A stretch of 59,827 nt of DNA from Alloascoidea hylecoeti (Eukaryota). The stretch spans positions 372,001 through 431,827 of the forward strand of contig BCKZ01000003.1 in assembly GCA_001600815.1 (NCBI GenBank), in the 5' to 3' direction. The notes below the pieces were generated by a model. The model searched no databases and was not told the DNA's origin. It saw nothing but the letters and a program-made list of their open reading frames with translations. Every line of letters starts with the position of its first letter. Positions within the stretch are counted from its first letter, which is position 1. Made by a program: the position numbers and the translations under genes. This document shows, piece after piece, positions 12,618 to 39,025 of the stretch.

Positions 12618-14136
12618 TTTTGTAGTTTGATTAATGATCATAGCCTATAGCTAGCTATTATTGGCTTCTAAAGAAAATTTATATATTGATGGGTAATATA
12701 TAATAAACAAATTACATATATTATATAATTCTTATATCTGAGAAGTTTATTTATAGGTTTGATATTATTTTATATATTCATTACGATTCCAATTGAACAA
12801 CATCCTCAATCAAGAGCATATTTTACGATTTCCCAATTTAAATCATAAGAATAGGCATAATTATATACAAAATGTTTAGTTGTAAATGAGCATTAGGGAA
12901 GTAACAGGCCAATTACATTATATTTACCAAGCACGCGAATTAATGCATAGACAGTTGTAAAACTTGGGAGGAAATTGTAGGTCACCGGTTGCTAGAGCCT
13001 CAAAAAGAATCTTTTTCTAATTATACCAAGTGTTCTTTTACATATTATGCACTAAAAAGCAAAAATATTTTTTATAAAAATTATTTACATTGAAGTTTTT
13101 TCACTTACATCTAATTCAGTTGCTGTTGTATGCGAAATATAATTATAATGTTATAATATATAAACGAATTAAAATAACCTAGAAAACAAAAAAAGAGTTG
13201 AACTAGAAGACTAATTGACGTTACAGATTAACCAATCATATAATATCGTTAACATGTTTACCCTCTTGATCTTGCATGTTTTATACAAAGAATTGTAATG
13301 CTTGTCGTATATACAGGAGAGTAACATAACATTGAAACTTAAGGTAGAAGAGTGAAGATGAAACCGCGGCCGCCCTCTGTATAATATGTGTATTTATGTG
13401 TAATGCAGCATTATTAATTTGATTTACAAGAATGGGCAAGAAAAACAAAAGATCAGAGGGTGTGCTTTTTCAAAGTGACATTTGACTTAACTTAGTTCGG
13501 AGGATGCAACCCCGAATTACTAATTGTAGCGGGCAATCGATGATCTTCATAATAAAACATGGTCTGTGTTTTTAATTATCTGCGGTTGTCGAGCCTGTGT
13601 TAATTTTCGACCAGTGAAATTACGGTTTGCTGGAGATTCGGGGTGAAGAAAATTATTCTACCTGCAGATAAGTAGAAAAAAAGAAAAAAGAAAAAAAAAT
13701 TCACCAGAAAATACGGTTGCAAGCTTCAGAAAAAAGATATAAGTGGCCCATTTTAATAAATATTTTCCAGCTTGTTGTTATTTTCTCATTACATTAATAT
13801 TAATTATAAATTTAAACAAGAAGCTCTGTTCACTTAAACTTTGCACTTTATTTTGTACTTAATCTTAAACAAAGAACCTTATATCGGTACAATTTATGAT
13901 TTATTTTTTATACTTTTGGCAAATTGCAACTCTTTCTCTCCAAGATCTCTGCTGCTTTGCACATTCGCACAACGCTTAATTAAGCTTCAATCACTAACAT
14001 TAATATTAATTATTTTATGATCTATATAAGTAAAGGTGCACGCTAATTATTCAGTTTTTCAATTTGCCTCTTCAATTTTCTCATTCGGCCTCAACAAATC
14101 TAACCCCATTAATATTCCTATTATTGCTTATATTCA

Positions 14137-15507
14137 ATGCAGGCCCAACCACTCGTACATGAGGAAAGGCAGGTATCAATCCATGACACCCCGAGAAGAA
14201 CCAAACGCCAACAAAAATTCCTAGAAAGACAGCTTGAGAACAAGGCTGATAAGCGAAAAAGAGAGGAAAATATAAGGAGAGCAATAAATTCTGTACAGCG
14301 CGGTATGACACAGCAAGATGCTGCTGAAAAATACGGACTGGCTCGTACCACTTTGAGGGGACGTTTAAATGGTAGACAGTCGAGACAAAAAGTTTCCGAA
14401 GATAGGCAGCTGTTAACTGCGATGGAAGAAAAGGCATTGGCAGAATACATAGTAGCTCAAGAAGTTGAAGGCCATCAAATACGGCATGGTAGAATAAGAA
14501 CTATCGCATTAAAAATGTTAGAGAAACGGGCAGAACGGGATGGTACTAAAGATCACGTTCCGGTGTCCATAGGTCATAAATGGTTGTCTAGGTTTAAAAA
14601 GCGTCATTTTAAAGATGATGAGTCTATTTTTATTAATAGTGACGAATTCCAAGCAGGATCTACATTCGATCGTGAGGAATCTAGTGAAGATGAACTTTCT
14701 TTTGATGATGAAGAAGATATAGAAGAAAATGAATCAGTACAGCTACAGGCCTTCCACAATTCAACGAACTCCTCTCCATATTCCCAGGGTGGTCAAATAT
14801 CTCCTACAGACTATACAATTTTTCCCAGGACGAACTCTGTTGATGGATCTCCTGGAGGACCAGAAATGTCATTCAAATTTAAAGGTGTTATTGTTCCTAA
14901 CCATGAATGTCTTACAGAGAATTTGAACGTATTATCTTCAAACTACAAATCTACCTCTAAAAATAGAAAGATGATTGATTATGTTCGACAAGTGCATGAC
15001 TCTCTAGAAAAATTGGATGCAGAAAAACGAATTTTAATGCTGGTGAATGAGGAATTAAAAGAGGCTTCTCAGAATATTGAAAGGGAAAAGAATGAATTAA
15101 AGTCTAGTTTCATCGCATCTTCAATCAATGACTCTTCTATACTGAACAGGCAAGCCTTAAGATCTAATGACTATAGCTATACTACACATACCCACCCAGT
15201 TAAGACTGAAATTCCAGACTACCCAGGATTTAGATCTTCAAGCATCGATATAGGGGCTATTCCAGGCGTTTATGGGGCACACCAACCTGTGCATGTCCCT
15301 CAACCGTACTACCAATATTCTCAAGTACTTAATTCCCCGCAACAATATAGTTATGTGGTTCCTACATCATCGGCCGATCCCCAATCAGGTGGTCTAACCT
15401 ATTACAACGAAAACTATTCTTCAACAACATGGCATCCAACGACGGCTCCATATACAGATCAATCCGAGTTTGAACAAGCCACATATAATCTAAAAACATC
15501 ACGTTAA
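14137..15507 (+). CDS. HTH-psq + Tc5/CENP-B HTH DNA-binding protein; probable domesticated pogo/Fot1-derived transcription factor
   Basis: IRRAINSVQRGMTQQDAAEKYGLARTTLRGRLNG (psq-type HTH) and LLTAMEEKALAEYI...IGHKWLSRFKKRH (Tc5 HTH). These are followed by an acidic stretch, a coiled-coil and a Q/Y/P/S-rich tail. No DDE domain is visible. Confidence 0.8.
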   Translation: MQAQPLVHEERQVSIHDTPRRTKRQQKFLERQLENKADKRKREENIRRAINSVQRGMTQQDAAEKYGLARTTLRGRLNGRQSRQKVSEDRQLLTAMEEKALAEYIVAQEVEGHQIRHGRIRTIALKMLEKRAERDGTKDHVPVSIGHKWLSRFKKRHFKDDESIFINSDEFQAGSTFDREESSEDELSFDDEEDIEENESVQLQAFHNSTNSSPYSQGGQISPTDYTIFPRTNSVDGSPGGPEMSFKFKGVIVPNHECLTENLNVLSSNYKSTSKNRKMIDYVRQVHDSLEKLDAEKRILMLVNEELKEASQNIEREKNELKSSFIASSINDSSILNRQALRSNDYSYTTHTHPVKTEIPDYPGFRSSSIDIGAIPGVYGAHQPVHVPQPYYQYSQVLNSPQQYSYVVPTSSADPQSGGLTYYNENYSSTTWHPTTAPYTDQSEFEQATYNLKTSR

Positions 15508-22989: not shown

Positions 22990-23330
22990 CTCACCTTCAT
23001 AACTTTGTATTTTATATTTTCCAATCCATTTCTGGATCATTAAAGAGATCCAAAATAGTTTTGGAGTGGAAGCTAAGACGATTTTTCCCTCCTCATCTTT
23101 TTTTCCATACTTGCTCTTTATCGAATTCAACATATCATTACGGTATTCTAATACTTCTTCTTGGATTCATTAATTTCAATTACCAACGGACGAGAAAATT
23201 GACTCACGACTCCTTTAGTGCCATGAGTATCATGAGAAAATTATGGATTTCCCATATTTGTGAATTAATAGTTAGTTGCATGTGATGATAGTGTAATGAT
23301 TCCATTTCCTTTCGGCCACTGGATGTACTA
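22990..23330 (-). mobile_element. Possible MULE transposase relic
   Basis: Minus-strand fragments MQL.., HKYGKSIIF / DTHGT and TPKLF / DLFNDPEM loosely match the MULE domain (Q...KYG..I..DxTHxT; PxxFMxDxxxxE). Needs several frameshifts. Confidence 0.3.
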
Positions 23331-24569
23331 AATTATAGACATATATCCTGCCACCAATCCTTCAAATTTCCACATCCTACGCTAGTGGCTATAAAAAAGT
23401 ACAACAACTGTCAATCTAGATTAATATAAATTGTTTATTATACTACTCAATTTTTACTTTTGTAAACTTTAATATTTAATTATGTAATATAGCGATATTT
23501 CTACATACATGTATTTATATTATATACAAGAATATCATCATAATTAGGTAGAGAGCTTTACACATTACTTATATCTCTGGGAATTTTGTTTAATAAACGT
23601 AGCATTAGAAATAATTAGAGCAACGTTTAATTTTCAATAAAACCATTCTATATATAAGTTTCTCCATCTTCACACGGCTGTCTGAAGAATTGTCAAAGGA
23701 AATAAGGTGTCCATTTCTGATCTTGATATCTCTTATATAAGGTACAGGAGAATTTGCTACTTTATATTATATGTCATGTTAGTTAGTAGTAACAACACAC
23801 AACACCATGTGTTTTATTCATATCCGGCATCCTGTTTACACCACCATCCCGCGAGACAGAGCTAAATCGTTCTTCTCTTCCCATTTAAGAATTCCAATGC
23901 TTCACTTGTAGGCCCATATATGTATACATTAACTCGCAGTAGGTGATACTAGGTTTTTGTTGAATGTAATGGGGTATATCACCACAACACAGCAAATGTT
24001 GCGATACTATTATATATTCTGCAGCTGTGAAGATCGTAGTATTATCAGAGAATTTATATATTAAGCTGATAAATAAATGTAACTTGAATTCCACTGTGAT
24101 AGTTAACCAATCATAACACAATATGAATATACATTTGAATATTACTGTATTCGTATTTATAGTTGTAGTCATTATAAATACAACACATCCTCTCTCTTTT
24201 TATCTCCTATTTTGATTTGTTCATGTCTCATCCGTCTTCTGACTAGTTCAGTTTCCTATGGGCTATTAAAAACCAATTGTGCAATCGAAATTCAGAGTTA
24301 AGGTACTTCTACCAAATAATTGATCTTTGAACAATTCCCCGTTTTTTAGTGTTCTGGTGATATTGATACTATGCTCAAAATACAAAAAGTGCCTATCAAT
24401 GCTAAGGGTTATTAATAATATTGACATCTATATTATCAAGGTGCCTGGTAGTCAAATCTATACCCATTTGGATTCAGCTCTCTCTTTCGAAACACAACTG
24501 AACTTCTCTCGGATTCCAAAACTCTCTCTCTCTTTTGTATAGAAAGGCTCTAATTAACCTTATTTCCAT

Positions 24570-24860
24570 AAAAATGATTTTGATAACGATTATGATGTTG
24601 ACAATCATCACAATTATAAAGATATAAACATGATGTTCACCATTATGAGGGTTAAGAGGACGAATAGGACGATATTGAATGTCGTTATAATGATTATTAT
24701 ATGATGATATAAATCAATTCTGACTACTCCTACTGGTTCAGTTGCATCAGTCGATTCAACTCCTTTGAATTCAGTTCTTCCTTTGTTGAGGGGCAATCCA
24801 TCTAGGAATAAAATGATTCATTCAATTACATTTTCTCACGATAATAAGTATATATTAATT
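24570..24860 (+). pseudogene. Degraded 5' copy of the acidic orphan gene (family of 37782-38495)
   Basis: aatgattttgataacgattatgat...cattatgaggg...actactcctactggttcagttgcatcagtcgattcaactcc aligns with 37840-38120. Upstream 24490-24525 aligns with 37705-37740. Confidence 0.7.
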
Positions 24861-24874
24861 CAGACGACAAAAGA

Positions 24875-25003
24875 TTCTCAGATTAAAGATTCACCTGTCA
24901 CGCTTAAGCTTATTGATTTTGGGCTCGCTGTTTTTAAAGATAAAGACCATGCTGAGTGAGTATCTTGTCTATAAATATCTGTAATTTAATAAAACAATAT
25001 AAT
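24875..25003 (+). pseudogene. Kinase fragment (subdomain VII) joined to a kinase 3' flank
   Basis: LKLIDFGLAVFKDKDH matches FIDFGLAVFEEEYH near 27423. The stretch 24970-25003 (tataaatatctgtaatttaataaaacaatataat) matches the reverse complement of about 25610-25643, downstream of the minus-strand kinase pseudogene. Confidence 0.65.
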
Positions 25004-25703
25004 GCAACTTATATATCTACATATGTACTACAAGTTATTGGTTGTTAGAGCGCAGAGCTAAACATGTGTTTTTGTTGATTTGGACATAGATTAGATAATG
25101 GAATATCTGAAATTTAAAGGAGTAGAAACGATGCAAAAAAACATAAAAAGGCACAGGCTCAGTTTCACGAAGGAGAATTAAACAGCTAAATTGAGAATTG
25201 TTGGAGCTTCCCAATATTGGTTGAAACTCCAGAGATGGGAAATTAAATTGTGGTACTATACACCACTAACTACGGATAATAAGATATTATATGGGTATAC
25301 AAAGTAAAGCATCTACATATTTTCTAATTGCAATCGATATCTTAACATATTTAATAAATGCTAACAATTTCAAAAAACTTACTTAACTATTACCAAATAT
25401 TTTGAGTTTCTTATTTTGCATTTATTACTTCGAATTCCAATAAACACGATTCGTATGAAAACCATTTCAACATTGAGATTGTATTATAAGGAATATAGGA
25501 TCTTTAAGTTTGCATATAACTCAAGACTATGTAGCTTTTCACTAACTTGATAAAATAGAATAGGTTAGAATTATGTGTCTCAACTATAGTTTAATAATAG
25601 TTGTCATTAATTATATTATTTTATTAAATTTCAGATATTTATATATTTTATATTAGTTAACTATATAGTTAATATATGATCTTTATTTGTTAATAGAATG
25701 ATC

Positions 25704-26505
25704 CTAAATTCCCACCACAAATCATTCATGCTGTAATGCTTCTTCTTCAATTATTCTTTTTGAAGGATCAATTGTTCTCCTCAATAAATCCTCCATTGAA
25801 TCTATAAATCTCATTTCAGATTGGTGTTTAGGGTTCCTTAGAAATGATGATTTTATTCCTTCAAATACTTCATCAAAATGTTTTTGTTTCAGAAAATCGT
25901 TGCTTAGACTCTGACGATGAATTTGTATTTGGGAAGTTTAATACATAGGGAAAAGTAGGTCCAGTCGCAGTTGGATGATAATCAAAGACAAAATACCGAG
26001 ATTCTTTCGATTTTATCTGGATTAAGTTTGTAATCATATTACGGATCTATTTTTTGAAAACCTTCTCTCAATCATCGCGAGATGCTTGTCAACTTCAACT
26101 CCATCTTCGTATATATCGAATAATTCTTTACCAGTGATTAGTTCTAACATCAATCATCCAATGGACCACATGTCACAAGGATAAGCCATCCTGTTCCAAG
26201 TATAACCTTTTTTATTGATATTAAAACCATTACTTACTACCATTTTAGGAATAAAGTTATATTGAGTAATTCTAAATAACCATTCAAGTAAAAATAAAAT
26301 GGTCTTTAATTTCCAAATAACCATTCTGTTTGGATTCATTATATTTTAAGAGTTTCAATAGGATTCTAATCTCTTTTAGCATGTTGATAATAGTAAACTG
26401 CGTATTATATATTTGTTGGGAATTCGATCGTAATTTTATTGATTTCAAAATTTTAATAGAGACATAGTCATTTTTCTCCCAATTCAAAGCTGTAATGATA
26501 CTAGT
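25704..26505 (-). pseudogene. LAMMER/Kns1-like (CLK family) protein kinase pseudogene, internally deleted
   Basis: YVSIKILKSI...KEIRILLKL...YLEIKDHF; YPCDMWSIG*LMLELITGKELF...KHLAMIER (the LAMMER signature EHLAMMER); RFIDSMEDLLRRTIDPSKRI..EALQHE*FVVGI*. Contains in-frame stops and frameshifts and lacks the HTD and DFG segments. Confidence 0.85.
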
Positions 26506-28295
26506 TAGTATTTAACAATAAAACTCCCATTCGTAAGTCGGATTAGGTATTGATAAGTATTCCACTTCTCCATCCTTTCTTTTCCACACTTTCAAGAGTT
26601 AAAATAACAATATATTATTTAGAGCCACAAACACATACACAATAAATTTGTTTCTAATTGGCAAAAATTAATCTCTGAGAATGGCTGCTGTTAGTAAAAA
26701 TTATTTGGACTTACTATTATTATCAGTCGCTATAAAGCTATTGCCAGAAAGTAATTGGCAATATAATGTGGCCACTGAGAAAGTCCAAATAAATGAACTT
26801 CCACGAATATTAACTGGTATCAGAACACTATATGACGCTCATTTTAATACCACGTACAATGATATAGAAGGACATGATATGATAGATATAGTTTTCGTAT
26901 TTGCACAAAAGTATGTTATCCAAGATACTCTAGGAAAAGGCTGCATATGATTTGGACAAATGAATATGTCTCGTTAAAAATTTCGAAATCGATACTTTCA
27001 AATTGCAATCACAATACACAGTTTACTATTCTCAATATCTTGAAAGAAATTAGAATATTGATGAAATTATCCCAAGATGGAAAATCCAAACAAAATGGGT
27101 GTTTGGAAATGAAAGATTATTGTCTATAATACAGTGTCTGCATTGTTTCGGACTTATTGGGGGAAAGCTTGGATACATATATGACCAATACAATTATACA
27201 ATATGTGTCTTAGTTGTTATATGGTATGGCTAGTGGTTATAACTTGTTAGAGCTCCAATCGATTATAGAGCAATTGATTGAATCAATTGCATTCATTCAC
27301 GATAGGGGAATAATTCATATTGATCTAAAGTTAGATAACATTCTACTAAAAAATTCAAATTCATTTTTTCCCATGACACTGGATTCACTAGAAGAAAACT
27401 TCCGATAGATTCATCGATCACATTTATTGATTTTGGTTTAGCCGTGTTTGAAGAAGAATACCATCCCCAGGCGGTGCCTGCTCAATCAAGCTTCTAAAGT
27501 TATACTTGGAACAGGATGGCTTACCCTTATGACATGTGGTGTGCATTGGATGCTTGATATGTTAGAACTAATTGTTCGGAATTGGATACCTCTTTTGTAT
27601 CTGGTGACATCGCTAAACAATAGTTATTATCTGTATATTATTATATATATATATATCTGTTCTATAAAAACAAGTAGAAATGGCTGACTATATAGTAAGT
27701 ACTAAACAAGATCTTCCACTACTACCTCAACTGATACAAAGAAGAAGGGGGAAAAAAAGGAAAAAATTAAAAAAATTAAATTTATTAATTAAATTATCTA
27801 CAATTTTTAAATTTCAAATTACAAATTTTCAAGTGTTAAAATGTCAAATCAAAACTTAATTTTATTTTTAGGATGAAATAATGCCTTTTTAATGGTTCAA
27901 TATCACATTTTTCTTTTTAAAAAAGCCTCAGTTCATAACTGATCACGACAAAAACGAACTTTCATAAAGATAATCTAATCCTTAATATCTAACACTAATC
28001 ACTGGTAAAGAATTATTCGATATATAGGAAGATGGAGTTAGAGTTTACAAGCATCTCGCGATGATCAAGAGAAGATTTTCAAAAAATAGATCCGTAATAT
28101 GATTACAAACTTGATCCAGATAAAATCGAAAGAATCTCGGTATTTTGTCTTTGATTATCATCCAACTGCGACTGGACCTACTTTTCCCTATGTATTAAAC
28201 TTCCCAAATACAAATTCATCGTCAGAGTCTAAGCAGTGATCTGAAATAAAATATCTTAATGAAGTATTTGAAGGAATAAAATTATCATTTTTAAG
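25837..28295. repeat. High-identity inverted repeat of ~300 bp: 25837-26142 vs 27994-28295
   Basis: The 242 bp core (25901-26142 vs 27994-28235) reads as a near-exact reverse complement with scattered substitutions, and similarity continues ~60 bp further. Confidence 0.9.
26681..28295 (+). pseudogene. LAMMER/Kns1-like kinase pseudogene, inverted relative to the 25704-26505 copy
   Basis: NDIEGH...FAQKYVIQDTLGKG; EYVSLKI...KEIRILMKL...CLEMKDY; CIVSDLLGESL; LIESIAFIHDRGIIHIDLKLDNILLKN; IDFGLAVF; VILGTGW; then LITGKELF...KHLAMIKR at 27995-28072. Multiple stops and frameshifts, with unrelated sequence at about 27580-27990. Confidence 0.85.
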
Positions 28296-28864
28296 CTGTT
28301 GTTGTTAGAGTGTTTGGCCCACAGTTTGGAACTATATTTATTATTAATTTTTGTCTGACCAGAAAATTGGAGAGCGTTTGGACTGAGTGCTAGAAATATG
28401 TCAGACACCTTTGAACTTGTGATATTTGCAGTTATGGTGGTTAATAATGATATTTGGTGAAGGAAAAACCATGTGTAAGTTTTATAAGTATAGTCTAGCT
28501 TAAAATAATAGGACAAACTGCACCTGCTGCTATTGCTGATCTGATATTGTAGATGTAAAATTTACTGACCATTTATCTGTTGACACATTAAGATTGAGTG
28601 TTCCAGCGAGGAAAGTGTCTGTGAAAGTTGTGATATGCACGTAGTAATCAAAGAAAGATCTGACGTAAGAAAAATCCTTGCTGATTAATTACTCTTATAT
28701 TTGTTAACCTCACATTGAGTGGCAATGACTAGTTGACATAGTTTTTCTCTTTGCAAGAGTAATAACAATGTAATAACTCTTAACAGCTAGGATGTGTCGT
28801 GGGTTTTTTAAGCTGATGAGAAGAAATTGATATGTGAATAGTGAGTATCGTATGTCTGTAAATA

Positions 28865-29495
28865 TAATTTTATACTCACAACGTATAATGATTTAATAAA
28901 TTTTACGAAAATAACAACTGAAAAGTATATTGAAGAAACTATATTAATCTAAATTAGATTTAAATGCTCAATAGAGTCATCATCGACCTCCTCATCAGTA
29001 GGAAAAGACGTTTACGAGCTTGACCTATTTGAAAAAGCAAATATTCTCAGATTCACAGTTAGGCACCATCAGGGTAAAATTTGGCAACTACTTTTCACCA
29101 GTTGAAATTAGTTCATTGAAAGCTGTTTTTTCTAATAATGATTCAAGCTCAAGGAACATCACTCTCATCATCATTAATGTTACCTCGAATAACTCTTCGA
29201 GAAAGTAAAGGATTTCCATCATTAATAGTGTATTCATATGTCAGACTTATTCTATGAATTGTTAATGGAAACGGGATTATATTAAATAGTTGAAGCGACT
29301 AATTCAACTAGCTCTGCATGAGTAACAGGAGTGATTGTATCATTATATCTATAAGTTTAAAACAGTATCCAATAATTTCATTATAATCTTTTTCATTCCC
29401 AAAACAGTTAAGATTATCTTAAAAATTGGGATGAATATCATTGCCATCATAATTATTAGCAATCGTTAACAAAATCTTTATCAATATAACGGGTG
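28865..29495 (-). pseudogene. Nearly full-length degraded copy of the acidic orphan gene plus its 3' flank
   Basis: Minus strand gives YIDKDFVND, ANNYDGNDIHPNF, ITPVTHAELVELVAST, YEYTINDGN.LLSRRVIRG, ELESLLEKTAFNELISTG, KVVAKFYPDG and LTVNLRIFAFS, colinear with the 237-aa ORF. The 3' flank matches about 36720-36800. Confidence 0.85.
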
Positions 29496-30743
29496 ATAAT
29501 AAGGAAAGGTTTGAAACTTGAGAGAAGTATACTTGCTTATAAGCTTAAGGGGTTTTATAAAGGGCAATCTGGACTTCTGTGAATTTAGAGATTTGACCAT
29601 CAGACTTCTTTTGTTAATATTGAAGTCAATATTATATATTAATAACCCATAACTTTAGCAGGCAGATTTATTTCTCTTGAAAAATTGATATCAATGTTAC
29701 TTGAATGAAAATAAGAAATAAAACAAGCTCTGCTAAAAATAAGGAGATTGTTCAAAGATCATCATTTGGCAAAACTACCCCAACATTGGAGTAGAAAAAT
29801 ACTGGAAATTCCCCAATAAATAGCTGTGCATTAATTGAAATATTCTATGTTGTGATACAATGAAAATAGAAGAACAAAAGAAATAGAAAGGATTCTAAAA
29901 AAATGACAACCCATAGTAACTTATGCGTACATGTAACTTATAAATACAAATACAGCAATATAATATGCACATGGACAAACACAAACTTATCCAAAACTCT
30001 TGATATTTGATTGATGGTATCATGTAATCATCCACCTCAATATATCTACAAAAAGTTCAAAAACACAGTGACTTTTATTAGGCAGATATATGAACTTTAG
30101 TATTATAATGAGAAGCGGAATTCACCAATTATGATTATTAGTAGATTTTAAGACGAGCAAACTTGTCTCCCAAATTTTGGCCTACACACACGAACACTTC
30201 GAAAAATTTCTTCCGATGTGGGGGATTAGATATTGATCAGATTATGATCACGAGAAACTATGTATAGCATTCCAGAGCTGTTATCTTTAATTTTTAGAAA
30301 TGTGTCTTTTATGGTTAACGCTGAAATTGGAATTTTTCACGTCATTTTTTTTATGAATTGTTCCCTTCATGATAAGATAACGTTTTGAATTATAATGAAG
30401 ATATACTAAACCAATCTACATACTTTAAAAGTGAATAAAGAATTTTTTTAAAAAAAATTATTTTTGTTATTTATGAACAAGTATTTAATATTTTGGATAT
30501 TCTCAATAATTTAATGATATACTACTAATTTTAGGACAAAGAAAGTTGAAATCACGACTTGCGTGATGTTGTGTGGTGAAAGTTTAAGTTTGGTTATAAA
30601 CTTAAAAGTTATATGATTACAGAAGATTGTTCAATGTTATACCTAAGTACTAAAGAAGTGAAAGTGTAAGATTAAAATAATTGGTGCTTACAAGCTATAA
30701 GTTAGATTGAAAGATGTATCAAATTTCTTTTTCAAAAGAAAAT

Positions 30744-32584
30744 TCAATCATCTTCTTCAACTTCATCAATTGAATTAATTAGTTTTAACGCCATGTGTTT
30801 AACTTCATCTTCTAAATCCATAACATCTAAATAATCAACAAATTGAAAAATAATATCATGAAATCCAAATTCTAAACAATTTAAAATTAAATCAATAATT
30901 TTTAAATTAATTTTATTTTTTTCATTTTTGATTAATAATTCTTTTGATTTAATATCACTCCAATGAATTTCATTTATAAAATATGATGAAGATTTAAATT
31001 TTTTTAAAATAATTATAAAATTTTTAAAATTTTTTAAAATAAATGATATATCATTCTGTAAAATACCAAATTTATCTTCATCATATGATCTAATAGTTAA
31101 AAAAGATAATGATAAAATTGCTAAATTTAAAATTTTAAAATTTCTTTTTTTGTTGGTATTATTAATTTTTTTTTTAATATTTCTTTGAATTGTTTTTCTA
31201 AATAATATACCAATTGAAGATTTTAAAAAATTATTAATTAAATTTGAATTTAAATAATAATTATTTATATATTTTTTAAAAATTTGAAAAGAATTAATTA
31301 AATAATTTAAAACAAATTTTGATTTAATTGCTTTTGGATCTTGAAATTGAATTAATATTTTATGAGTTGTTTCTGATTTTTCAGGTAAAAAAATATTTTT
31401 TTTAATTGGATTATTTAATTCAGTATTTTGTTTATTATTAATATTTTGTAAATTTTTTATTGATTTGTTATTATTAATTTTATTTGATTTGATTGATTTT
31501 TCAATTTCATTTTTAGAACCATCAATTACATCAATACATTCCTTTAGAATACTTTTCCAAATAGTAATTGGTCTTTCAATATCTTTAAATATGGTAATTC
31601 TTCTTTTTTTATCATTTATTGAAATATAATATAATTCTTGAAATGCCATTAGTCTAGTGAAAGGATTTTTATAATTTTTCAGACCAGTTATTAAAGTACC
31701 ATTTGGATCATTTGATTTTGAAGTTAATAATTTACCATGATGCAAACAGCCCATTGATATGTATGCAGTGAAACTTAAATTTGTAAATTCCCATAACCAA
31801 ATCAGTAAAATTGAAGATGATAATTGGAATATAAAAGTGTTGAATTGAATTGGAGAAGATGACAGATAGTTGCTATTAGGTAATTTGAAAAAGAGTCTTA
31901 AGATGCAAAGAGATTTGGACCGAATTGATTTTCTATTAACTAAATAAAGTATTGGGAAAGTCAGGTTGATAAATAGGGATACTGCCAATGCACGTTTTGA
32001 AACATGAAATATGTTTGATTGGAGTAAGAATTTTGGGCTTGTCTACGGAGATGTTAGGATCTGATGAAGATGAATATATGAATATGTATACTTACCGCAG
32101 GGGTTAAAGCGAAAGGTAAAGTGTTGAAATCCAGAAACACGTGCAGCAACGAAAACACCAAAGGGACGTAGAACACGAAACAGAAGAAGTAAACGCACTG
32201 CTCCCCAGCAACAGTGAACGCCAGGCCGGTTGGAATGGAGCAGTAGAAAACCGCCGAAGAAAAGACCAGGGAACACAGAGCCCACAGAAACTGCTTGCTG
32301 GCGACAGAATGGCACATCTGCGAAAACAGCGTCGGCCGGGTGTCTTGGGAGACCCGAATGAACGACTTCCGGTACACGAGCACCGCAAACAGGGCCGCGA
32401 AAATGGGGGGGGTCCGCAGCACCCAGGTGCACCCGCGCCCACACAGCACGCCGACCCCAAGCGACACCGCCAAAAGCATCCGGCACAGACGCGAAAACCG
32501 GACCGACAGAACCTCTGCCAGCACCGAGCTGTACTCGGCCGCCGGCATTCTGTGAGCCGCTGGTCGTGGGTGTCTTCGTTGCAT
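30744..32584 (-). CDS. NDC1: Nucleoporin/SPB membrane protein Ndc1; 2 exons (32584-32096, 32042-30744)
   Basis: A 53-nt intron (GTAAGT...CCTAAC...TAG) joins a multi-TM exon in frame to SMGCLHHGKLLTSKSNDPNGTLITGLK...AFQELYYIS...RRITIF and SYDEDKFGILQ. The start could instead be the Met at 32548. Confidence 0.85.
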
Positions 32585-32633
32585 TTGGGTGTTTCAGCTT
32601 TCACGAAAAGAGTTTGGGAAACTTAAATCCCGG

Positions 32634-32692
32634 CGTGTCACATGACGCCGCGTGTCACATGACCGCCGCACGTGCCTCGCTCTGCGACGCGT
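32634..32692. promoter_or_regulatory. NDC1/RAD52 divergent promoter motif cluster: 2x GTCACATG, CACGTG and an MCB (ACGCGT)
   Basis: cgtgtcacatgac repeats at 32634 and 32651; CACGTG at 32669-32674; ACGCGT at 32687-32692. Confidence 0.6.
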
Positions 32693-32748
32693 GGATATTA
32701 CTAAAATATATATACAAATACAAATACACATACAAATACACCCAAAAC

Positions 32749-34440
32749 ATGCAAAACTGGCTCCCGCACGAAATATCAAACATCGAGAGGCTGCTGGTCC
32801 GTGGGCTGGGCCCGGAGTACATATCCCAGCGCCCGGCCCCAGGTGGCGGAAGAGTGCCTTACTTGGAAGGACGTAAAGCCATAGAACTGGCAAACGATCT
32901 ATTTGGTTTCAATGGCTGGAGATCCGAAGTCAGAAACGTCCAAGTCGATTATTTCGATGACCACGATAAACAAGGTCCATACGATTTGGGTTTATCTGCT
33001 ACTGTTCGTGTTACTTTAAAAGATGGCTCGTATCATGAAGATATCGGCTATGCCCATGCTGAAAATGTTGATACTCGGTTTATGGCTTTTGAAAAATGTA
33101 AGAAAGAAGCTGTTACTGATGGAATGAAAAGAGCGCTACGATGTTTTGGTAATGTTTTAGGGAATTGTCTTTATAATCGGAATTTCACAAAAGAAGTATT
33201 AAAGATGCCTTGTTCTTCTGTATGTCTCTTCTTTTACTTCTGTTATTTGTGATTTGGTTCTAACCCTTCACTTTTTCTTCTTCTTTTCTTGTAGCATAAA
33301 ATCGATCTTGATAATTTATATCGTCAGCCTGAACTTGCATCTAACCCCCACTCACATTTATCCTCAATAACATCCACAACATCCACAACATCAACATCTT
33401 CATCAACAATTCAAAACATTCAAAATACAAACTCAAATTTAAAAACAAATCAAACCACTCATATCTCAAAATCTATGAAATCTCCATCTCCTGAATCCAT
33501 TCAAGATAATTTCGATTATGATTTTAGAAGTGAAGATATACTAGATCCTGAATTTGATCTAGCGGGAATAGATGAATATGATGAAGAATTATCAATTGAA
33601 AATGAACTACCTAGTCAAATATCTAAAATATCACAACCAACAACTAATAATGATAGCATACAAATAACAGAGAATCATAATCAAAACATACTCCCATCAA
33701 TAAAAACCCCAATAAAACCACCAATAGAAATAGTTACACCAATACGATTTTTCAGTGCAAGAGCAGCAGAAGCAGTACAAAACAATTCTCCAATACCATC
33801 TAAAAATTTATTTAATCCATCTTTTCAAAGTCCTTCAATGCGTAGAACTTTAGATCAATCAAAGTCTGCACCTATTAAAAGAACTCAAATTGAATCATTA
33901 TTACCTTCTCAATCTCCATCTCAATTAACAACAACATCACCATCTATTGTAAGAACATTAGATCAATCAAAATCTGCCCCTGTTAAAAAATCTCAAGTTG
34001 AATCATTATCATTATCATTATCATTAGCTACTCAATCTCAATCAAAAAATATAATATCTCCATCTCCATCATCTGTTTCAACTAAACCATTACCATCATC
34101 AAACTCATCCACCGGTACAAGCACTACACCTACAACTACGAACACAACTACAAATGATATTTCTCCTAGTTCCCAAGCCCCACAACTTTCAACCAAAAAC
34201 AACATAACAAAGAGTCAAGACCATGTTCCATCATTTGATAATCCAAGATTAACACCAAATAGAATGATAGGAATGCCTCCAAATCGTTCAAGAAGAGGAA
34301 GATATAATAATGGTGGTCCATTAAATGAAATTAATCCTTCAATAATTAATAAATTTATTACAAAAAAGAATAATTTTAAATTGAATGGAAAGAATAATAA
34401 TGAAATAATTGAACCAGAAACTAAAAAGGCAAGAATTTAA
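32749..34440 (+). CDS. RAD52: Recombination mediator Rad52; 2 exons (32749-33219, 33295-34440)
   Basis: LGPEYISQRPAPGGGRVPYLEG...ANDLFGFNGW...YHEDIGY...AFEKCKKEAVTDGMKRALRCFGNVLGNCLY. The intron GTATGT...CTAAC...TAG keeps the frame. The C-terminus has FFSARAAEAVQ...FNPSFQSPSMRRTLDQSKS. Confidence 0.95.
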
Positions 34441-34659
34441 AATGATATAAGTATGAGTATGTGAGTTTTGAATTGTGATGAAAGTGCTTGGGAAATTAAA
34501 TTATAACTTTTTGCATATTTTTTGCATATAATATAATAAAAAAAAAAACACCCTATATAAATATTCATTTCTAGATATTTGATTTTTAATTATAAAACTT
34601 GATTATATATACTATTAAAGCTATTATAAAATTTGTATTACCTTAAATTTTTAAATATG

Positions 34660-34717
34660 TTTTGATTTTGATTTTGATTTTGATTTTGATTTTGATTTTG
34701 ATTTTGATTTTGATTTT
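34660..34717. repeat. (TTTTGA)n hexanucleotide microsatellite
   Basis: About nine consecutive ttttga units upstream of UBA3. Confidence 0.9.
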
Positions 34718-34815
34718 AAGCTCTACATCCAATGATCTTACAAACACCAACATTGATTAATCATCCCTTCGAATCACCCATAACATAAGCTTACAACATA
34801 ACAAAACATAACAAA

Positions 34816-36361
34816 ATGAGAAGGTATGGATAAATCTTATATTCCCTTTGTGCCCACTGATCTTCAATTCACTAACTGAGACTTATGATTGATATAGTGA
34901 AGTTTCGCTAGAACCTTTTTTAACTAGGCCAGGACCATTCACAGAGGAAGAGTTTGAACCAGAACAAGTTTCTGATTTCTTACACAACTCCAAGATTTTG
35001 TAAGTATTTATATTAATATTAATATTAATATTAATATTCATATTCAAATGAAATAAAAATCTAATGCTTTATAATTTATTTCTTTAGAATTATTGGTGCA
35101 GGTGGTTTAGGATGTGAACTTTTAAAAGATCTTTCGTTATCAGGTTTTAAAAATATTCACATAATTGATATGGACACAATTGATTTATCAAATTTAAATC
35201 GACAATTTTTATTTCGTCCAGAAGATATAGGTAAATCAAAAGCAATAGTTGCATCTCAATTTATTCAAAAAAGAATTAAAGATATTTCAATTACTCCATA
35301 TTTTGGAAAAATTCAAGATAAACCATCATCATATTATAAACAATTTAGAATTATTATATGTGGCTTAGATAGTGTCGAAGCAAGAAGATGGATTAATGCA
35401 ACTTTAGTACAATTGGTTGATGATGATGATCCTGAATCAATTATACCTATTATTGATGGTGGTACTGAAGGGTTTAAAGGTCAGTCAAGAGTTATATTAC
35501 CAACTATTTCTTCTTGTTATGAATGTTCTCTAGATATATTGGGTGCAAAGAAAACTTTCCCTATTTGTACTATTGCTAATACTCCAAGATTACCTGAACA
35601 TTGTATTGAATGGTGTAGTCAAATTGCATGGCCAAAAAATTTCCCAGGTATGTTTCCCCTTCTTCTTCATCATTGTTTTAAAAATCAATAATATTAACAT
35701 TAAAAATAGATATAAAACTCGATTCTGATAATCCTGAACATGTAAACTGGATCTTTGAAACTGCAACTTCTCGAGCAAAAGAATTTAATATATCAGGTAT
35801 AACATATTCATTAACACTAGGAGTTATTAAAAATATAATTCCATCAATTGCATCAACAAATGCAATAATTGCTGCTTCATGTTCAAATGAAGCATTAAAA
35901 TTAATAACTGCTTGTAATCCAATTTTAAATAATTATATGATGTATTCTGGTAATGATTCAATTTATGCTTATACTTTTGAACATATGAAAAGGAAAACTT
36001 GTCCTGTTTGTGGAAATATTGCAATTAAATTTATTGCTAATGATGAATGGACATTAGATGAATTTATTGAAAAGATTTCAATTGATCAAAATATGTGAGC
36101 ATTTCTTTACATTTATTGTTTCATTAAATATCATATTTTTACTAACTTTTTTTTTTTTTTATATATAGTGTTTTGAAAAATCCATCATTAAGAACTGCTA
36201 CAAATACTTTGTATATGGCAGCTCCACCAGATTTAGAAGAACAAACGCGGTCAAATCTTCAAAAACAAATTAAAGAATTAATTATGAATGGTGAAGAGGT
36301 TGTTATTACAGATTTATCATTACCTATTTCATCTAGAATTATAGTTTATTTTAAAAAATGA
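34816..36361 (+). CDS. UBA3: NEDD8/Rub1-activating enzyme E1 catalytic subunit; 5 exons (34816-34823, 34898-34999, 35088-35647, 35710-36094, 36169-36361)
   Basis: Spliced in frame: LTRPGPF...[65 protein letters not shown] (catalytic Cys), [20 protein letters not shown], and the E2-binding domain LKNPSLR. Confidence 0.92.
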
Positions 36362-36806
36362 AAATTAATTAATGTCAACGTTGTTTGTTGTTGATGATGG
36401 CTCAGTTGTTTATACTTATATAAAGATATATTCTAGGAATTGATAATATAAATTAATCTTAAGATAATTATAGGAAATTTGCTAGATATATGCTCAACAG
36501 TTGCTTCATAGAGTGGAAACTATATTGATATCACATACTGTAAACAATAGTATGTAGATTAAAGTACAAAATATTATATAAGTCTGAAAGCAGTGACAAA
36601 TATTATGACATCAATAACAACTTTGATATAAATTTAAAGGCTGGTAATAAAAGCTTTTGTTCCATCAAAGTCTTCCGATCCATAGATTTCTCAAGTGACA
36701 GATATACTTATCTACATGTAATTTTATACACTTACACGGTATATTGATTATTAAAGGTTATAAAAATAACAATTTCAAATTATATTAAAGAAGTCCTATT
36801 TATAAT

Positions 36807-37520
36807 TTATATATCTAAATTAAATGTAAGTTCTCGTTCAATGGATTCATCAGGGGATAAATACGAAATTAATCCCATTGAAAAAGGGAATATTTTCAAT
36901 NTAACAGTTATTGACCCATTATAACCATTAGGATAAAATTTAGAAACTACATTTTGAAAATCACCAGTCGAAATTTCTTCTTCAAGAGCTACTTTTTCTA
37001 TCAACGATTCTAGTTCCTTGAACTCGGAATCACTCTCATTATTGGTATCACCAGGAGTGACTCTTCGAGAAAGTTTAGTATTGTCATCTANTATAGTGTA
37101 CTCATATGGCACAGTTACTTTGCGATTGTTGGTGGAAGTAGGGGTATTGAAAAGGATATCGACATCAGCGTCGATAGGAACTGAAGGAGTTGAAACAACT
37201 GATTCAACTGAATCAACAGTAATAACCGGAGTAACTGGAGTGATGGGAGTAACTGGAGTGATGGGAGTAACTGGTGTTGGTTTAATATCATTATATTTAT
37301 AATTATTACGATAATGATATCCAATATCGTAGTTCTCGTTGTCGTCCTCATCATCTTCATAGTAGTCAAGGTCACCCTCATAATTACGATGAATGTCATA
37401 ATCATCATAATTAGCAGAATCATTATCAAAATCATTATCAAAATCATTATCAAAATCATTATTGATATAAGATTCCGGTTCAGTTGAGCTTTTTTGTGCG
37501 GTAGGAAGTCTGTAAAACAT
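36807..37520 (-). CDS. Unknown 237-aa acidic protein, left palindrome copy
   Basis: Open ATG-to-stop ORF with two N codons: D/N/Y-rich N-terminus, TP(V/I) repeats and a ~100-aa globular-looking C-terminus. Amino-acid conservation with the 28865-29495 copy supports coding status. Confidence 0.6.
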   Translation of the reverse strand: MFYRLPTAQKSSTEPESYINNDFDNDFDNDFDNDSANYDDYDIHRNYEGDLDYYEDDEDDNENYDIGYHYRNNYKYNDIKPTPVTPITPVTPITPVTPVITVDSVESVVSTPSVPIDADVDILFNTPTSTNNRKVTVPYEYTIXDDNTKLSRRVTPGDTNNESDSEFKELESLIEKVALEEEISTGDFQNVVSKFYPNGYNGSITVXLKIFPFSMGLISYLSPDESIERELTFNLDI

Positions 37521-37626
37521 AATGGATGATATTATTATGATCCAATATTGAGTGATGATGAAGAGTTGAACATTCTGATAGAAGTTTAGTTGTATTTAAC
37601 AAATTGAAATTTTAATTTGAGTCCTG

Positions 37627-37675
37627 CACGTGATGATANNNNANTTNNTNNNANNAANTNNNNTATCATCACGTG
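37627..37675. promoter_or_regulatory. Pair of Cbf1/CDEI-type ATCACGTG sites flanking the palindrome centre
   Basis: CACGTG at 37627-37632 and 37670-37675, each in ATCACGTG context, about 107 bp upstream of each ATG. Confidence 0.5.
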
Positions 37676-37781
37676 CAGGACTCAAATTAAAATTTCAATT
37701 TGTTAAATACAACTAAACTTCTATCAGAATGTTCAACTCTTCATCATCACTCAATATTGGATCATAATAATATCATCCATT

Positions 37782-38495
37782 ATGTTTTACAGACTTCCTA
37801 CCGCACAAAAAAGCTCAACTGAACCGGAATCTTATATCAATAATGATTTTGATAATGATTTTGATAATGATTTTGATAATGATTCTGCTAATTATGATGA
37901 TTATGACATTCATCGTAATTATGAGGGTGACCTTGACTACTATGAAGATGATGAGGACGACAACGAGAACTACGATATTGGATATCATTATCGTAATAAT
38001 TATAAATATAATGATATTAAACCAACACCAGTTACTCCCATCACTCCAGTTACTCCCATCACTCCAGTTACTCCGGTTATTACTGTTGATTCAGTTGAAT
38101 CAGTTGTTTCAACTCCTTCAGTTCCTATCGACGCTGATGTCGATATCCTTTTCAATACCCCTACTTCCACCAACAATCGCAAAGTAACTGTGCCATATGA
38201 GTACACTATANTAGATGACAATACTAAACTTTCTCGAAGAGTCACTCCTGGTGATACCAATAATGAGAGTGATTCCGAGTTCAAGGAACTAGAATCGTTG
38301 ATAGAAAAAGTAGCTCTTGAAGAAGAAATTTCGACTGGTGATTTTCAAAATGTAGTTTCTAAATTTTATCCTAATGGTTATAATGGGTCAATAACTGTTA
38401 NATTGAAAATATTCCCTTTTTCAATGGGATTAATTTCGTATTTATCCCCTGATGAATCCATTGAACGAGAACTTACATTTAATTTAGATATATAA
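37782..38495 (+). CDS. Unknown 237-aa acidic protein, right palindrome copy
   Basis: Same translation as 36807-37520. Confidence 0.6.
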   Translation: MFYRLPTAQKSSTEPESYINNDFDNDFDNDFDNDSANYDDYDIHRNYEGDLDYYEDDEDDNENYDIGYHYRNNYKYNDIKPTPVTPITPVTPITPVTPVITVDSVESVVSTPSVPIDADVDILFNTPTSTNNRKVTVPYEYTIXDDNTKLSRRVTPGDTNNESDSEFKELESLIEKVALEEEISTGDFQNVVSKFYPNGYNGSITVXLKIFPFSMGLISYLSPDESIERELTFNLDI

Positions 38496-39025
38496 ATTAT
38501 AAATAGGACTTCTTTAATATAATTTGAAATTGTTATTTTTATAACCTTTAATAATCAATATACCGTGTAAGCGTAAACAAGAATAAAACTATAAATGCCC
38601 TATATGCATATACGAGTGACAATTTTGTAAGCAACAGAGACTCAAGTTCAAACGGATGGAAGAAGTGCTGAAAAGTTTGTGAAAATGGTGAGAGTACAAC
38701 TACTAAATAGCTAAATAATTATAATTTGTAGATGAGGGAAAGTAATAGGACATTGTATCGAAATTTAAATTGGAGGAAATTCTGAAAAAAAAGCTAAGAA
38801 AGCAGAAAAGATGAACCTTGGGTATTCTTGAGCTAACTCAATGGGTTCATTTGCCTATATATAAGACTTTATAGCAATCTATATACATGTATGTTTACTA
38901 TGGTCGAGATAATAATTGTAGGGGACACCAGTTGATTCAACATCAATCTGTTGTTATTGAGATTCTAATTGTTTAATAATTATTTCTTGACAGGCAATTG
39001 CAACTTCAACGTGAGTTCTGATAAC

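Follow-up and report, generated by a model that had tools for sequence, protein, structure and literature searches.

The locus raises a plain question: is the 237-codon frame at positions 37782 to 38495 a gene that makes a protein, and, if so, what are the related sequences that lie around it? In a preliminary description of the stretch of DNA analysed here (59,827 nt, referred to below as the window), the frame had been taken for one of four copies of an acidic protein family under purifying selection. We consider it likely that it is a genuine protein-coding gene, that it belongs to a small, taxonomically restricted family, and that it is present twice, head to head, in the arms of a perfect 920-nt palindrome situated beside decayed copies. 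The evidence is set out below, and the coordinates of the features are collected in Table 1.

Results

The open frame and its surroundings

The window is AT-rich (32% GC) and eukaryotic, and it probably comes from a fungus. Among its open reading frames, matches were obtained for mitochondrial IF2, Ndc1, Rad52, an EamA transporter, an M16 insulinase, a TP_methylase, C2H2 fingers and, weakly, a fungal Zn2Cys6 cluster; a ThiF/E2-binding UBA3-like enzyme is split across several frames. Rfam and tRNA scans of the window gave no matches.

The frame at 37782-38495 (+) consists of 237 codons and extends over 262 codons from stop to stop. With stops making up 7.7% of random codons, chance alone would leave about 1e-4 frames of 262 codons open in the window, and the frame is, by this measure, a real one. 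An exact mirror of it is found on the opposite strand. The two frames, A and A', diverge from the centre of the palindrome, with 261 nt between their ATG codons. Copy A has a CACGTG motif 107 nt upstream of its ATG, which is mirrored at 37627-37632 for copy A'. This hexamer occurs nine times in the window, as against 3.1 expected, and none of 100 shuffles reached nine. Its presence upstream of both frames fits a real promoter, which we treat as a hint only. Pairs of CACGTG were also seen at 32138/32669, 41713/42193 and 49182/49287, and the motif is probably a common promoter element of the organism. Metatranscriptome X9 contributed six short pieces at low-complexity places and none on the frame, which constitutes no evidence either way on expression.

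Several neighbouring sequences merit description in their own right. A GC island at 32200-32900 (56-67% GC in a window of about 30% GC; no Rfam match) takes in the 5' coding exon of Ndc1 (minus strand, 32057-32593; Pfam Ndc1_Nup 2-160), an intergenic stretch and the 5' part of Rad52; GC-biased gene conversion acting on a divergent promoter may have produced it. A 321-aa frame rich in serine, threonine and proline (33475-34440, +) follows immediately on the Rad52 domain and has an internal repeat spaced 108 nt (RTLDQSKSAP...); it may be a gene of its own or a low-complexity C-terminal region of Rad52. Lastly, a pogo/Tc5-like frame of 464 aa (14113-15504, +) carries HTH_psq and Tc5-transposase DNA-binding domains, and no DDE domain was seen in it at E ≤ 0.01. 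It may be what is left of a transposon, or else a domesticated CENP-B-like gene.

Table 1. Positions of the features described at the locus, with the relatives found outside the window (for these, length and state replace position and strand)
Feature	Position or length	Strand or state	Evidence and remarks
Open copy A	37782..38495	+	237-aa ORF, stop codon included; start common to P0003 and P0002
Open copy A'	36807..37520	-	Exact mirror of copy A; tblastn 100% over 237 aa
Conserved C-terminal domain	38190..38492	+	Residues ~137-237; predicted strand-strand-helix-helix-helix-strand-strand-strand
NDFD-coding tandem repeat	37840..37906	+	12-nt unit, 4.4 copies, 95% match
TP(V/I)-coding tandem repeat	38028..38079	+	18-nt unit, 2.6 copies, 100% match; one unit fewer in X3
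CACGTG motif	37670..37675		107 nt upstream of copy A ATG; mirrored for copy A'
Left palindrome arm	36731..37650		Inverted-repeat search; X1, X3 and X4 contigs break at 36731-36760
Right palindrome arm	37652..38571		Inverted-repeat search
Palindrome centre	37639..37663		17 ambiguous bases, symmetrically placed
29-kb pseudogene copy with 3' flank	28869..29489	-	Near full-length; at least 3 frame changes; in-frame stops; 66% DNA identity
24.5-kb 5' fragment copy	24390..24765	+	Upstream region and N-terminal half; frameshift, stops; abuts kinase fragment
Relic of the family's 3' flank	23413..23483	+	~70 nt, 72-76% identical to other copies
Kinase pseudogene	26681..27600	+	Pkinase match on one piece; stop in glycine loop; frameshifts
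Inverted partner kinase pseudogene	26037..26511	-	In-frame TGA; best PDB matches MAPK12/CLK/LAMMER
Kinase fragment	24768..24956	+	DFG motif; joined to 24.5-kb 5' fragment copy
Relatives P0001, P0002, P0003	202, 210, 220 aa	intact	E 1e-35 to 2.5e-35
Relative P0004	103 aa	truncated	E 2.4e-7

The protein has a few intact relatives

A phmmer search of 1,835,955,588 representative sequences returned four relatives at E ≤ 1e-3, three of them with E-values between 1e-35 and 2.5e-35. The same four (P0001-P0004) were recovered by a profile search, and a word-seeded search found one. Protein-pattern scans gave 70 matches in metagenome contigs and 48 in viral contigs, none of which was a relative, and an exact 25-mer beside the centre of the palindrome had no match in the metagenome contigs. 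A general literature search gave unrelated papers, and motif strings of the family were not found in the literature, where it may still be in print by accession or in a subscription journal. Judged by these sequence searches, the family is uncharacterised and lineage-restricted, and it goes under no name in the libraries or literature searched.

The relatives are 45-63% identical to the C-terminal domain of the window protein in a domain alignment, and in the profile search the three intact ones keep frames of 202-220 codons open at 44-53% identity. That frames of more than 200 codons should stay open at about 50% divergence in AT-rich DNA argues for selection on the protein. An alignment of the five sequences has 13 invariant columns, all but one of which lie at residues 130-175. 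The window protein, P0003 and P0002 have their start codon and first ~25 residues in common, the N-terminal motif reading MFYRLP...EPESYINNDFDND in the window protein and MYYRLP...EPDSYVNNDLDND in P0003. The family alignment as a whole consists of this shared N-terminal motif, an acidic middle part that aligns poorly and about 100 conserved C-terminal residues. The earlier supposition that this is a real protein is thus borne out by three intact relatives of 202-220 aa that retain its conserved domain, two of which also share its start.

One could still envision that the frame is non-functional: young or in decay, it would have stayed open by chance since a recent duplication. Degeneration is indeed seen in two of the window's four copies and in one of the four outside relatives (the 103-aa P0004), the codon-position test presented below is not significant, and no RNA support was obtained among the public runs that match the stretch, although this last point says nothing either way. 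Such a frame would not be expected to have three relatives with 202-220 codons open at 44-53% identity when ~7.7% of random codons are stops, nor would conservation be concentrated in one domain with 13 invariant columns. Furthermore, the window differs from the public runs by two substitutions, both of them synonymous (V108 GTT>GTC and T101 ACT>ACC), and by one indel in run X3, which is an in-frame loss of exactly one TPVTPI unit. We therefore regard a non-functional frame as very unlikely.

Architecture of the protein and searches for its fold

The window protein has a pI of 4.05, with D and E making up 20% of all residues and 21% of those in the N-terminal part, and no hydrophobic N-terminal stretch was seen in its sequence. 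The product is a soluble, very acidic protein without detectable relative outside the family. When modelled at full length with AlphaFold2 it reached a pLDDT of 47.6, with residues 1-135 below 50; the last 113 residues modelled alone reached 67.4 (pTM 0.57), the five models scoring between 62.7 and 67.4. In these models residues 1-135 are predicted to be disordered. They are rich in D, E, N and Y and evolve fast, also by repeat expansion; among family members, the residues that follow the conserved ~25-residue N-terminal motif vary up to about residue 135. Residues ~137-237 are predicted to form a conserved, small alpha/beta domain.

The domain matched nothing known in the searches that we ran. 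No Pfam-A family was found at E ≤ 10 for the window protein, and the five members together gave only two noise matches (E 0.082 and 0.2, in one member each). A profile of the five sequences found none of 177,635 distinct PDB sequences at E ≤ 10. At the level of structure, the model of the C-terminal domain (pLDDT 67) gave best Foldseek E-values of 0.5 and 0.78 against the PDB, and best Z-scores of 4.4 and 3.7 with VIA-align against 48,161 chains, none reaching Z ≥ 5 (the tool's stated background best is 7-8). The best E-value in the BFVD fold search was 0.11, and residues 108-220 of P0003 had no usable match in the ESM Atlas. The proposal of an unknown domain of about 100 residues accordingly stands, and neither the Pfam, the PDB nor the BFVD search returned a clear match to a known protein or a transposon ORF. 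A homodimer prediction for the domain scored 0.01 with the alignment unused, which speaks neither for nor against a dimer.

Structural rows for SMC heads and a retron (Z 3.5-4.4) were rejected as chance, since they fall below background. The best of them resembles the N-terminal lobe of an SMC/Rad50-type ABC ATPase in having two strands followed by helices (Z 4.4, rmsd 3.9, 92 aligned residues; the other rows have Z 3.5-3.7). Unlike those heads, the window protein has no visible Walker A motif, and the identity is 6-12% at a Z-score below background.

The gene lies in a perfect palindrome

An inverted-repeat search identified a repeat of 929 nt with 100% complementarity and 1 nt between the arms. 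Exact mirror identity spans 36731-37650 and 37652-38571, and hence makes up a perfect palindrome of 920 nt. All 21 non-ACGT letters of the window fall inside it in mirrored positions: 36901 with 38401, 37091 with 38211, and 17 at the centre.

One possible explanation for such symmetry is that the palindrome is an assembly artefact, created when both read orientations were collapsed or a fold-back chimera was assembled, in which case there would be one open copy, or two copies located elsewhere. Identity that is perfect down to the mirrored ambiguous bases and the symmetric, N-rich centre is what an artefact would leave. The depth data, moreover, come from contigs, not raw reads, of four public runs and cover positions 23000-37638. 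Against this, each of the three DNA runs gives the arm contig a greater depth than the flank contig next to it: 33.4 versus 23.2 in X1 (1.4-fold), 17.2 versus 6.18 in X3 (2.8-fold) and 17.4 versus 7.99 in X4 (2.2-fold). These runs derive from three studies, the best one possibly being the window's own source. All three show contig breaks at 36731-36760, exactly where the arm ends on its outer side, and a break at this point together with raised depth in the arm is as expected for two flanks joining one arm. The arm contigs are also continuous through the positions at which the window carries N, which implies that the arms do not differ there. The arm seems to be truly two-copy, and an artefact is improbable; the head-to-head join of the arms rests on the window's assembly.

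Run X3 lacks 18 nt at 37228, the mirror position of the TP array. Because its arm contig is unbroken across this indel at 2.8 times the flank depth, both arms seem to be without the unit. We infer that the arms evolve in concert, by gene conversion from arm to arm. Palindromes with short spacers are expected to be fragile.

In X1, X3 and X4 we also observed a contig of single-copy depth whose matches to the arm and to the 29-kb copy are short but follow the order of the gene, touching 36751, 28921-28956, 37006-37074, 37401-37435 and 37540 onward. The contig probably represents one more paralog in another part of this genome.

Decayed copies and an older inverted duplication

A tblastn search of the window with the 237-aa protein gave seven matches at E ≤ 10, three of which are noise. 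Two are 100% identical over 237 residues, at 37782-38492 (+) and 37520-36810 (-). The others are a match to the 29-kb copy (29289-29065, -; 36% over 78 residues, E 1e-5) and a weak acidic match to the 24.5-kb copy (24573-24632, E 1.4). When the family profile was searched against all six-frame pieces of the window, 14 rows were obtained at E ≤ 10, the first five being the known copies (E ≥ 0.07), and no further copy was found.

Alignment of the DNA showed what the peptide matches represent. The 29-kb copy aligns at 38165-38577 with 29270-28869 (66% over 429 columns) and at 37858-37938 with 29487-29406 (76%), with gaps of 5, 7 and 8+2 bases; its peptide similarity jumps among three frames and meets stops. 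This copy is a nearly full-length pseudogene. The 24.5-kb copy aligns with 37828-38025 at 67% and with 38087-38118 at 87.5%, and its upstream region matches that of the 29-kb copy (24462-24390 with 29586-29664). It ends at about 24765, where it is directly joined to a kinase fragment with a DFG motif. Related sequence is therefore present at all four places at which copies had been reported, but the two at 36807 and 37782 are mirror arms and not independent, and the other two are a pseudogene and a broken 5' fragment. The "four copies" are one gene, mirrored, plus relics.

The region from 23413 to 28955 was itself seen to be an older, degenerate inverted duplication, with pairs that are 75-96% identical; in it lie the decayed copies of the acidic gene, together with two CLK/LAMMER-like kinase pseudogenes that mirror each other. 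The older inverted duplication beside the newer palindrome indicates that the locus has made inverted duplications at least twice.

Several decayed copies and an overall palindromic structure could also be expected if the unit were a mobile or foldback-type element with the ORF as its own gene and if the copies had spread by transposition. All four copies lose similarity at about one outer point (38577-38586), which would suit an element end, and a pogo/Tc5-like frame is present elsewhere in the window. On the other hand, there is no target-site duplication, the flanks 36722-36730 and 38572-38580 sharing no direct repeat, and no member of the family has a Pfam family below E 0.08, hence no transposase, integrase or reverse transcriptase match. 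The depth is only about twofold and not that of a multi-copy element, only four relatives were found among 1.8 billion representatives, and the old copies moved with the kinase gene as part of a larger segment. For these reasons, we think a mobile element highly improbable.

Comparison with the pseudogene is neutral on selection

Purifying selection had initially been proposed from the open copy and the 29-kb copy, whose C-terminal blocks seemed to differ mostly at synonymous sites. The motifs on which this was based (YEYTI, LSRRV, ISTG and VVxKFYPxG) are indeed kept in the 29-kb copy, and the stretch ELESLIEK, which is ELESLLEK in the pseudogene, has four synonymous changes and one replacement. 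This stretch is a favourable excerpt. When the C-terminal region is aligned simply as DNA, codon positions 1, 2 and 3 carry 21, 17 and 24 mismatches (p=0.26), and "mostly synonymous", while true of the excerpt, does not hold over the whole alignable region. Two N-terminal comparisons by codon position were flat too.

Substitution rates were compared for one pair of copies, namely the open copy and the 29-kb pseudogene. The 72 codon pairs gave a pN/pS of 0.48 (bootstrap 95% 0.27-0.85) and an omega of 0.39, values biased towards low dN because the codons had been picked by protein similarity. The signal of purifying selection in the picked codons is not robust, since the unbiased codon-position test yields p=0.26. 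The non-coding 3' flank is no less similar than the coding part, with 71% versus 67% of columns (56% in shuffles). The comparison with the pseudogene thus neither shows nor excludes selection, and the intact relatives outside the window are the better evidence for it.

Tandem repeats and the kinase proposal

The expanded NDFD and TP(V/I) repeats of the open copy were confirmed as tandem arrays of a 12-nt unit (4.4 copies) and an 18-nt unit (2.6 copies). It had been suggested that the TP repeats are phosphosites for a linked CMGC kinase, that is, that the protein is the substrate in a functional gene pair and TP(V/I) provides proline-directed sites. Several observations are compatible with this idea. 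In the old copies the acidic gene is arranged tail to tail with a kinase gene, within ~1 kb of it, and the two were duplicated together; the window protein has 10 [ST]P sites; and one kinase fragment, when its TGA is read as X, has 26 PDB matches (E 8e-4 to 6e-3), which are MAPK12, CLK and LAMMER kinases plus two unnamed "Protein kinase, putative" chains. Without the TGA read-through, a kinase piece of 39 aa has no PDB match. The CMGC label thus receives weak support, but the kinase pieces to which it applies are all broken.

The same data, taken together with the relatives, weigh heavily against a substrate-kinase pair. The [ST]P sites number 1, 4, 1 and 0 in the four relatives, as compared with the 10 in the window protein, and the TP array, which is absent from those relatives, is a perfect 18-nt repeat whose copy number differs between strains. 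The kinase pieces at 24.7-27.6 kb are part of the older degenerate inverted duplication (inverted pairs I2, I3, I7, I12 and I13), and every one of them is interrupted by stops or frameshifts. They adjoin dead copies only; the open copies are 9-10 kb away, with Ndc1, Rad52 and the UBA3-like gene in between, and no kinase piece lies within 9 kb of them. In addition, CLK/LAMMER kinases prefer arginine-rich sites over simple T-P. With sites that are not conserved, an array that varies and kinases that are both dead and distant, the phosphosite proposal is not supported, and we judge such a pair to be extremely unlikely. We infer instead that both arrays, TP and NDFD, arose recently by microsatellite-type expansion in a linker that tolerates it and do not represent a conserved phosphorylation module.

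Discussion

The reading that we prefer is that of a genuine gene, mirrored in a palindrome and flanked by its own relics. Under this reading, the family would turn over by birth and death, that is, by repeated inverted duplication followed by decay, and the arms of the present palindrome would be kept identical by arm-to-arm gene conversion. The C-terminal domain might be the functional module of the protein and would probably bind a partner, and the acidic, disordered tail could serve as a polyanionic region that binds basic partners or tunes the interaction of the C-terminal domain. These roles of the domain and the tail are a guess, and we regard them as doubtful.

Alternatively, the domain might have a new fold and belong to a fast-turnover "conflict" gene that was amplified by fold-back duplication and kept by gene conversion. 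Such a gene may be an element of the selfish or meiotic-drive-like kind, or it may antagonise the CLK-like kinases with which it was once co-duplicated. Birth and death, recurrent inverted duplications, lineage restriction and the lack of a fold match make the "conflict" reading compatible with the data, yet we assign it very little probability.

Provided that it is expressed, the gene enlarges the set of lineage-restricted families by one whose conserved domain of about 100 residues was placed by neither the sequence nor the fold searches carried out here, and a domain without a sequence or fold match is a candidate for structure determination. In the perfect palindrome of 0.92 kb at this locus, the spacer is very short, each arm holds an entire gene, and depth is about double in three data sets. 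The locus could serve as a small natural case in which the formation, homogenisation and decay of palindromes can be followed.

As an orphan gene family, the one described here is ordinary, and its palindromic arrangement is its most unusual aspect. Like other orphan families of fungi, it has few sequences, no Pfam family, and short, largely disordered members that undergo duplication and decay. It departs from that class in having a clearly conserved domain of ~100 aa and a gene that resides in a perfect palindrome. Its long disordered region rich in D, E, N and Y is reminiscent of proteins with acidic tails, such as histone chaperones and acidic activation domains, to which the window protein bears no relation in sequence or fold. 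The closest parallel to the arrangement is provided by the ampliconic palindromes of the human Y chromosome, in which gene pairs are homogenised by gene conversion between the arms. Those palindromes likewise have identical arms, a whole gene in each arm and a short spacer, and their homogenisation is matched here by a strain-specific indel that seems to be present in both arms. The palindrome described here differs in being about 1000 times smaller, with arms of 0.92 kb, in belonging to a microbial eukaryote, and in that conversion between its arms is deduced from contigs.
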